The notes: generated from the sequence alone by a model not told the origin. Positions 14,108 through 14,304 are shown, counted from the first letter of the stretch. The stretch is DNA of 15,032 bases from a virus (IMGVR_UViG_2563366979_000002:1-15032), one strand, 5' to 3'. Made by a program: numbers and translations.

Positions 14108-14260
14108 TTATTTAATCAATGAGTTCTGAAAGGTATGAAGTCTATCATCCAAGTCTCAATCGATCGATACTTGCGGTAGTTGATGAGGAAAACTCTGGTA
14201 CACAAAGCTTTGCACTGGACTGCAAGGTGTTGTGCTTCTCTGGAGTGCGATATGTTTGAT
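14108..14260 (-). promoter_or_regulatory. Probable gtr operon promoter region (between the tI hairpin and the gtrA start)
   Basis: Only available non-coding space upstream of gtrA; no individual promoter hexamers confidently assigned. Confidence 0.3.
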
Positions 14261-14304
14261 GACAAAAAATTAGCGCAATAGGACAAAAAATCACCTTGCG
14301 CTAA
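14261..14304 (-). terminator. Lambda tI / sib-like intrinsic terminator
   Basis: Minus strand reads TTAGCGCAAGGTGATTTTTTGTCCTATTGCGCTAA followed by TTTTTTGTC: 9-bp stem plus U-tract; closely matches the lambda tI hairpin as I recall it, with a few substitutions. Confidence 0.65.

Follow-up and report, generated by a model that had tools for sequence, protein, structure and literature searches.

The window, a stretch of 15,032 nucleotides of viral DNA, holds an entire prophage: a 13-kb remnant inserted between ybhC and ybhB, at the lambda attachment site. Its features are the following, each with the evidence for its assignment.

1-1284, minus strand: ybhC (open reading frame)
1331-1345: attL core GCTTTTTTATACTAA, then lambda P' arm sequence (sequence)
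1419-2489, minus strand: int, lambda-type, intact, 356 amino acids (Pfam Arm-DNA-bind_1 and Phage_integrase)
2467-2684, minus strand: xis, frameshifted by a 1-nt deletion (alignment with E. coli 042 xis)
to about 4651, minus strand: small early-left genes (open reading frames)
about 4680: deletion joint (comparison with the 042 prophage)
4729-10980, plus strand: Mu/SfV-like baseplate and tail-fibre genes (open reading frames, Pfam)
11374-14107, minus strand: gtr operon (three intact open reading frames)
11374-12831, minus strand: gtrC-type gene, 485 amino acids (open reading frame; no Pfam family)
12831-13748, minus strand: gtrB (Pfam Glycos_transf_2)
13745-14107, minus strand: gtrA (Pfam GtrA_DPMS_TM)
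14132-14167, minus strand: predicted gtr promoter, start near C14132 (homology to P22)
14189-14236: hairpin-2, a second conserved element (palindrome and conserved left flank)
14256-14316, minus strand: full sib duplex, predicted for the read-through RNA (MFE, lambda architecture)
14261-14269, minus strand: U-tract of tI, RNA 5'-UUUUUUGUC-3' (sequence read directly)
14270-14304, minus strand: tI hairpin, arms 14270-14278 and 14296-14304, 9 bp with 4 G-C pairs (folds and alignment)
14279: private substitution, T on the plus strand, G in every other copy examined
14280-14294, minus strand: tI loop (fold)
14305-14465, plus strand: attR, with a lambda-type P arm (14305-14450) and the core GCTTTTTTATACTAA (14451-14465) (alignment with lambda, HK97 and HK106)
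14523-14549, minus strand: ybhB's own 11-bp hairpin, without an adjacent U-tract (fold -26.1 kcal/mol, z -6.0)
14556-15032, minus strand: ybhB (Pfam PBP family)

The extent of the loss is apparent from E. coli 042, the strain checked, which carries a full lambdoid prophage of ~41 kb with a Mu/SfV-like tail. There, int, xis, N, a cI-like repressor, cro, cII, replication genes, nin and Q are followed by lysis genes, an HK97-type head, a contractile tail, gtrCBA, sib and attR, and then by ybhB. The window is homologous to this prophage only over 1-2715, 4681-11224 and 12833-15032, so that ~29 kb of prophage is missing. N, cI, cII, Q and the lysis and head genes are absent from the remnant, as is the pL region, and the DNA-circularisation gene is truncated at its 5' end. 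At the right end, bacterial B' sequence stands directly after the attR core. No identical remnant was found among complete E. coli genomes.

The right-hand junction is a common one. Over the 541 nt from gtrA to ybhB, the window is 99.4-99.6% identical to 97 of 5426 complete E. coli genomes, that of strain 042 included, and gtrA lies at the same distance in 17 of the 67 IMG/VR contigs that carry a lambda P arm. The E. coli prophages with the order gtrABC-sib-attR-ybhB (those of 042 and GN06156, for instance) share gtrA, gtrB and the ybhC/ybhB attachment site with the window, but the window has a different gtrC and a private substitution in the hairpin stem. The initial annotation located a lambda sib/tI element between attR and the gtr operon, and the coordinates bear this out for the interval between the attR core and gtrA. 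It also described the element as now placed there, which would imply a rearrangement, and this part does not hold: sib stands at attR because the phage is integrated, as it does in any lambda-type lysogen, and a gtr-sib-attR layout so widespread is a standard mosaic rather than a local rearrangement. What has changed with respect to lambda is the neighbour, a gtr cassette lying to the left of sib where lambda has its b region (ea59).

The gtr operon and its predicted promoter

A generic sigma-70 scan found no consensus promoter upstream of gtrA. When the window was aligned with P22, SfI and an intS-type prophage, a candidate emerged by homology: a -35 element TCGATC (14162-14167), a 17-nt spacer and a -10 element TAGACT (14139-14144), to be compared with TCGATC-17 nt-TACACT in P22. 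The alignment with P22 predicts a start at or near C14132, with a 25-nt leader to the gtrA ATG; in P22, mapping has put the gtr start 25 bp ahead of the gtrA start codon (PMC2909390). The likeness to the P22 gtr region (Broadbent et al. 2010) thus covers the GATC-containing -35 element, the spacer, a -10 element of the form TAsACT and the leader, and the same motifs are also found in K-12 yfdG, SfI and the intS-type prophage. The initial annotation estimated that only ~150 bp were left for a gtr promoter. The interval between the U-tract and the gtrA ATG is 153 nt (14108-14260), and the predicted promoter fits well inside it. A search for literature on the yfdG promoter returned nothing useful, and the K-12 3'-end data in the supplements of Adams et al. 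2021 have no intS or yfdG entries.

In P22, 115 bp of upstream sequence suffices for regulation and the -35 element contains GATC-4 (PMC2909390). Phase variation through Dam and OxyR is characterized by four GATC sites, arranged in two pairs that OxyR half-sites overlap, within ~115 bp upstream of the start (PMC2909390, PMC3688519). The window differs in that it has one GATC only between gtrA and sib (14162-14165) and lacks the 87-nt segment of P22 that carries GATC-1 to GATC-3 and the upstream OxyR half-sites. With a single GATC, the phase-variation signature is absent, and we rejected Dam/OxyR phase variation of this operon; judging from the sequence, gtr expression in the window is probably constitutive. 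P22 differs further in its thrW-type attP and in having no sib.

Descent and fold of the sib/tI element

The segment of lambda that spans sib/tI, the P arm and the att core (27470-27742) is homologous to 14196-14465 of the window. Searched by blastn against phage records, the sib part matches lambda 27470-27608 with 91.4% identity over 139 nt (E 3e-48), and the phage closest to the sib region is HK106 (93.2% over 146 nt, 14190-14335), which also has the same variant of the palindrome adjacent to sib. In alignments with lambda, HK97 and HK106, homology extends past sib and is contiguous with the lambda-type P arm and the 15-bp att core, GCTTTTTTATACTAA. Several relatives carry annotations at the corresponding place: in the HK97 record, a homologous stretch of 50 nt that maps to ~14262-14312 is labelled 'sib retroregulation site'; the HK022 record has a 'sib transcription processing site' on the homologous stretch; and in the phage 434 record the homologue of the hairpin is annotated 'terminator', on the int-sense strand. 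The hairpin arms of the HK97, HK022, 434 and HK106-type sib are identical to those of the window except for T14279.

The position agrees as well. Measured from the centre of the att core (14458), the window U-tract (14262-14269) lies at 189-196 nt, and in lambda the U-tract (27536-27543) lies at 188-195 nt from 27731. Like sib, the element is thus on the int-sense strand, on the far side of attP as seen from int and ~190 nt from the core. On these comparisons, 14256-14316 is the orthologue of phage lambda sib/tI. It came with a lambda-type int-attP-sib integration module whose sequence is HK106-like, and the window copy is a member of the sib/tI family by descent, not by current function. The initial annotation had assigned a lambda-type sib/tI to the minus strand from its likeness to lambda, an assignment that the alignment through the P arm to the core confirms. 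The element is already known: sib belongs to the textbooks and is annotated in several phage records, it is present in 955 of 5426 complete E. coli genomes, and nothing about the window copy is new in kind. A search of Rfam (E-value mode) with the window region and the lambda, HK106 and intS-type loci returned no family for sib or for hairpin-2; nor does Rfam have a family for the 'antisense RNA' annotated in DN1/BL21(DE3).

On the plus strand, 14261-14304 reads GACAAAAAA-TTAGCGCAAT-AGGACAAAAAATCAC-CTTGCGCTAA. In the minus-strand RNA, UUAGCGCAA pairs with UUGCGCUAA over 9 bp, and UUUUUUGUC follows. This is the form of an intrinsic terminator, with a 9-bp stem containing 4 G-C pairs followed by UUUUUUGU, one of the ten pairs of lambda being gone. 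Compared with lambda sib/tI (~27,536-27,590), the window thus keeps 9 of 10 stem pairs, the U-tract and the extended duplex, on the same strand relative to int; it differs in a loop that is 1 nt longer and carries A-to-G changes, and in the pair lost at T14279. The minus-strand RNA 14325-14240 folds at -26.8 kcal/mol, against -14.2 +/- 2.8 kcal/mol for its shuffles (z -4.5), and none of 200 shuffles folded as well. The hairpin reported by the initial annotation folds stably, and the observation as a whole is confirmed, far beyond chance. The segment 14305-14316 (5'-UGAGACAGAGCA) is predicted to pair with the U-tract region, forming the outer pairs of an extended duplex of ~20 bp, and the folds of lambda and of the closest gtr relative have the same architecture. 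A simple terminator scan did not list the tI hairpin, probably because the enclosed loop is longer than the 8-nt limit of the scan.

Conservation was assessed on 67 IMG/VR contigs retrieved through a P-arm motif only, to which the window was added (68 sequences); since retrieval went through the P arm, the set is independent of sib. The number of non-consensus cells per column is 0.2 in the left arm, 0.0 in the right arm and 1.1 in the U-tract, then 4.2 in the loop and 22.7 in the left flank immediately beyond the duplex. Among these homologues, the arms and the U-tract are almost invariant, and the loop and flanks are variable.

The palindrome at the module boundary

Towards gtrA, likeness to lambda begins at ~14196 and likeness to HK106 at 14189; positions 14108-14195 are not lambda-like. 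The initial annotation had extended a lambda-like character to the sequence upstream of the hairpin, which is correct from these positions on but not for the remainder. The upstream sequence that it quoted lies outside sib and belongs to a separate element, hairpin-2, shared with P22, SfI and intS-type prophages. Its core is a 34-bp palindrome at 14201-14234, CACAAAGCTTTGCA-CTGGAC-TGCAAGGTGTTGTG.

The palindrome consensus, ACAAAACTGAGACACACAAAGCTTTGCACTGGATTGCAAGGCTTTGTGCT, is found in 208 phage records, and its carriers comprise lambda, 434, 21, phi80, the HK series, P22-like phages, SfI, SfIV and Sf101, and Stx phages. It adjoins sib in lambda and HK106, whereas HK97 and HK022, unlike the window, have no hairpin-2 beside sib. 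Elsewhere, intS-type integrase genes have it 20-24 nt beyond their stop codon (an argW prophage; K-12 CPS-53, upstream of yfdG/gtrA), HK446 has it beyond a thrW-type attP, and in P22 and SfI it separates attP from the gtr regulatory region; in P22, as in the window, it is upstream of the whole of that region. In all contexts examined, the palindrome marks the boundary between the int/att module and accessory or tail-fibre genes. The genes that follow sib are tail-fibre genes in HK97 and HK106, effector-like genes in 434 and gtrABC in the window. In phage 434, the palindrome is followed by the 3' end of an intS-type integrase gene (60 nt or more) and only then by sib, an arrangement that is a fossil of module replacement.

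In the window, too, a join of modules can be located. Left of ~14200 the sequence follows the intS-type gtr prophage, with 98.5% identity between gtrC and 14236; from ~14220 rightward it matches HK106 down to the private variants of that phage, and the 17 nt at 14203-14219 are the same in the window, the intS-type gtr prophage and HK106. The crossover that united the gtr cassette with the lambda-type module therefore lies inside the palindrome, and sequence comparison puts the join of gtr and sib-attP modules at 14200-14219.

With an A-rich run, a G-C stem and a T-rich run, and with a terminator-like match on the plus strand (14207-14228) in the simple scan, hairpin-2 looks like a bidirectional intrinsic terminator. 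Across 38 distinct variants of the palindrome, 84.7% of cells are paired in the minus sense and 84.2% in the plus sense, and the preference for the minus strand that P22 and SfI had suggested disappeared on this count. One pair is changed on both sides, and covariation is not significant in the 38 variants, the score being reached by 21 of 500 shuffles. The window palindrome is weaker than the consensus (-11.6 and -15.0 kcal/mol versus -20.6 and -22.4 kcal/mol). None of the records examined annotates the palindrome as a terminator, and the literature searched does not describe it. Its function may be that of a terminator or insulator, of a recombination linker or of a protein site. One reading, which we put forward tentatively, is a portable bidirectional insulator that moves with gtr cassettes and offers a homology 'linker' for cassette swaps; it is prompted by the gtr-lambda join inside the window palindrome and by the intS-type integrase stub between palindrome and sib in 434.

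A different role for 14189-14236, be it the binding of a protein or promoter activity dependent on CII (TTGC-N6-TTGC on the plus strand), appears improbable. Most variants do read TTGCACTGGATTGC on the plus strand, the phage 434 record annotates CII features on the palindrome, and the combination of conservation at the sequence level with non-significant covariation would suit such a site. The epsilon34 genome paper suggests CII for TTGCN6TTGC sites, possibly other than the palindrome, upstream of its gtrA. However, the motif is an automatic consequence of TTGCAA being a palindromic hexamer, and a CII promoter is expected to have TTGC-N6-TTGC straddling its -35 region and a -10 element ~13 nt downstream. 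In the window the second repeat is CTGC rather than TTGC (TTGC-ACTGGA-CTGC), no variant examined has a -10-like hexamer at the right distance, and a plus-strand promoter would fire away from gtrA, antisense to int. We therefore rejected a CII-activated promoter at the window palindrome.

Retroregulation, termination and the lost stem pair

In lambda, as reportedly described by Guarneros et al. 1982 and Schmeissner et al. 1984, pI transcripts stop at tI and N-modified pL transcripts read through it, yielding a long duplex; RNase III cuts this duplex, the int message then decaying from its 3' side, and integration separates sib from int. The extended sib duplex of lambda is an RNase III substrate. 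pI and pL differ in the Int synthesis that they give, and this difference depends on sib, which lies distal to int (PMC2951348; PMC5300877). In an intact phage of the present kind, as in 042, int transcripts made without antitermination would end at the hairpin and U-tract (tI), and N-antiterminated pL transcripts would pass tI and fold into the longer duplex. RNase III would cleave this duplex and leave the int mRNA open to 3' decay, and integration would carry sib to attR, away from int.

This circuit is complete in the E. coli 042 relative. The window keeps an intact int, but it has lost N, cI, cII and the pL region and its xis carries the frameshift; no N-antiterminated int transcript can therefore reach sib. 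With the components of the circuit gone, retroregulation of int is vestigial in the window copy. The retroregulation element that the initial annotation described as retained is hence retained as sequence, but not in function, in a 13-kb remnant of this make-up.

The elements ybhB, tI, hairpin-2, gtr promoter and gtrABC all point in one direction, and in relatives bioA precedes ybhB by 58 nt, on the same strand. Given this shared orientation, tI is the first canonical intrinsic terminator for bioA-ybhB read-through. It would end host bioA-ybhB transcripts near the U-tract (14261-14269), and tI followed by hairpin-2 would place two hairpins between ybhB and the gtr promoter with its start near 14132. 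It is plausible that tI insulates gtr from host ybhB transcription, and a terminator or insulator role is the only one that plausibly remains for the window copy. Since ybhB has a strong hairpin of its own, little read-in may reach tI. Taken as a whole, the locus is best explained as a lambda sib/tI orthologue whose circuit is dead and for which only the terminator role is still plausible, and we regard this explanation as likely.

The stem itself carries one change. The initial annotation had noticed the loss of a stem pair relative to lambda, and this loss is real: where lambda and all relatives have G opposite C14295, the window has T14279, which removes the loop-proximal G-C pair and leaves a G.A mismatch at 14279/14295 in the RNA. 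It is the sole T at this position among 77 retrieved sequences. The exact T version is found neither in species-representative genomes nor in JGI metagenome contigs, where the G version has 64 matches in one set and 2 in the other, and none of the 955 sib-bearing complete E. coli genomes has a full-length 60-mer identical to that of the window. The predicted free energy of the hairpin is -13.5 kcal/mol in the window, -17.5 kcal/mol in the closest gtr relative and -17.7 kcal/mol in lambda; for the read-through form, the corresponding values are -26.8, -30.8 and -28.4 kcal/mol. The cost of T14279 is ~+4 kcal/mol (ddG), and 9 contiguous pairs and U6 remain. The substitution probably weakens termination at tI without abolishing it. 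Relaxed constraint in a prophage undergoing decay would be in keeping with it; it could also be a sequencing error.

Other explanations of the element were weighed against these observations. The notion of a chance hairpin or of a generic, REP-like repeat unrelated to lambda sib drew on the silence of the simple terminator scan and of Rfam; it retains virtually no probability and is refuted by the alignments, in which homology at E 3e-48 continues into the P arm and att core, with the same position relative to the core and curated sib annotations in the homologous records. A pure relic, a sib/tI without present function that is kept between the gtr cassette and attR and whose T14279 is the first sign of neutral decay, is possible but doubtful. 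In its favour, the retroregulation circuit no longer exists, no other copy found shares T14279, ybhB has a hairpin of its own upstream and hairpin-2 offers a second barrier. Yet across the 10+10 positions of the two arms there is a single substitution, the U-tract has none, and a 9-bp stem with U6 is left. Elsewhere the 541-nt junction agrees at 99.6% with relatives that have full prophages, so that there was little time for decay either way. The relic reading overlaps the explanation by a sib/tI orthologue with a terminator role, and differs from it only on whether termination still matters.

Adaptive weakening, in which gtr would depend in part on bioA-ybhB read-through and the stem mutation would have been selected to let transcription pass tI, is very unlikely. 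It could appeal to a mutation at an otherwise invariant stem position, to a stability lowered by 4 kcal/mol and to the common orientation of ybhB, tI and gtrA. Against it, gtr has promoter motifs of its own, which are homologous to the mapped P22 promoter and kept in K-12, SfI and intS-type prophages; hairpin-2 still lies between tI and this promoter; a 9-bp G-C-rich stem with U6 should still terminate; and one private SNP is the minimum to be expected from drift.

For the sib/tI orthologue itself, little is at stake, as it is a textbook element standing where any lambda-type lysogen puts it. This work adds to it modestly, by showing that the prophage is a remnant, that one stem mutation is private to this copy and that the palindrome is a widely shared module-boundary element, and by placing a predicted gtr promoter. 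T14279 is a natural variant that bears on the share of the loop-proximal pair in tI termination and RNase III processing, and the adjacent palindrome is a candidate element of module boundaries. The gtr-sib-attR junction to which both belong occurs in ~2% of complete E. coli genomes. In the window, a 13-kb remnant keeps an intact O-antigen glucosylation operon, whose expression signals can now be given as coordinates, and two upstream hairpins separate the predicted gtr start from the biotin-regulated bioA-ybhB transcript.

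Extent of the prophage and its early-left genes

The entire prophage lies inside the window, at 1331-14465, and is bounded by the two attachment cores:

1331-1345, attL core
14451-14465, attR core

Its length is only about 13.1 kb. Relative to the prophage type of E. coli 042, some 29 kb is absent, and the 042-type functions that are absent comprise N, cI, cro, cII, O/P, nin, Q, lysis, head, sheath, tube and tape measure. The deletion joint lies near 4680, so that the DNA-circularisation gene (4729-5970) has lost its 5' end. No identical remnant was found among the complete E. 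coli genomes in the collection. At the left end, xis (2467-2684, minus strand) carries a 1-nt deletion when compared with E. coli 042 xis, which splits the gene into two overlapping ORFs, whereas int (1419-2489) is intact. The surviving early-left genes also include a 104-aa ORF (3462-3776, minus strand) with a match to the PerC family of transcriptional activators (PF06069, E 8.5e-15).

Composition of the gtr operon and the tail-fibre end

The gtr operon (window 11374-12833 region) is a mosaic in its own right. The gtrC gene, with 485 aa, is of the argW/intS-prophage type (98.5%), while gtrB-gtrA-sib-attR is of the 042/GN06156 type (99.2%), and the switch of type coincides exactly with the gtrB/gtrC junction. 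The gtrC product has no Pfam family match. Beside the operon, the annotation of relatives includes a partial tail-fibre-assembly pseudogene, in opposite orientation directly after tfa, which corresponds in the window to:

~10952-11080, minus strand, putative tail-fibre-assembly pseudogene, placed by correspondence with 2653-2781 of L004 (a relative that carries an intS-type integrase gene) from the relatives' annotation

The pseudogene of the relatives may be the remainder of a tail-fibre segment, either alternative or invertible.

Hairpins near attR and hairpin-2 in other genomes

A strong 11-bp hairpin follows ybhB (14523-14549, minus strand); it belongs to a fold with a z of -6.0 and lacks an adjoining U-tract. 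A second hairpin, which is U-rich, lies nearer the att core.

Hairpin-2, the palindrome where the gtr and lambda-type modules join, has counterparts elsewhere. In phage 434 (L006, OL657226), positions 1262-1325, between the palindrome and sib, still contain a stretch of 60 nt or more with near identity to the last part of an intS-type integrase gene, its 3' end (L004 5960-6020). This stub is a relic of an older replacement of the integration module. The phage DN1 record (L007) annotates an 'antisense RNA' at 503-664, plus strand, citing BL21(DE3). This element, the equivalent of lambda 27372-27533 (plus strand), matches no Rfam family, has its 3' limit just past the palindrome and shares with the window only its last ~60 nt. 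In the K-12 prophage CPS-53 (L264, MG1655, 1523-1631, or genome 2,467,722-2,467,830), the palindrome occurs 19 nt past the intS stop codon, and the predicted yfdG promoter has the same motifs as the window's predicted gtr promoter (TCGATC, 17 nt, TAGACT), with a predicted start at 2,467,830. As palindrome and predicted promoter are both present in CPS-53, both predictions can be checked on K-12 transcriptome maps.
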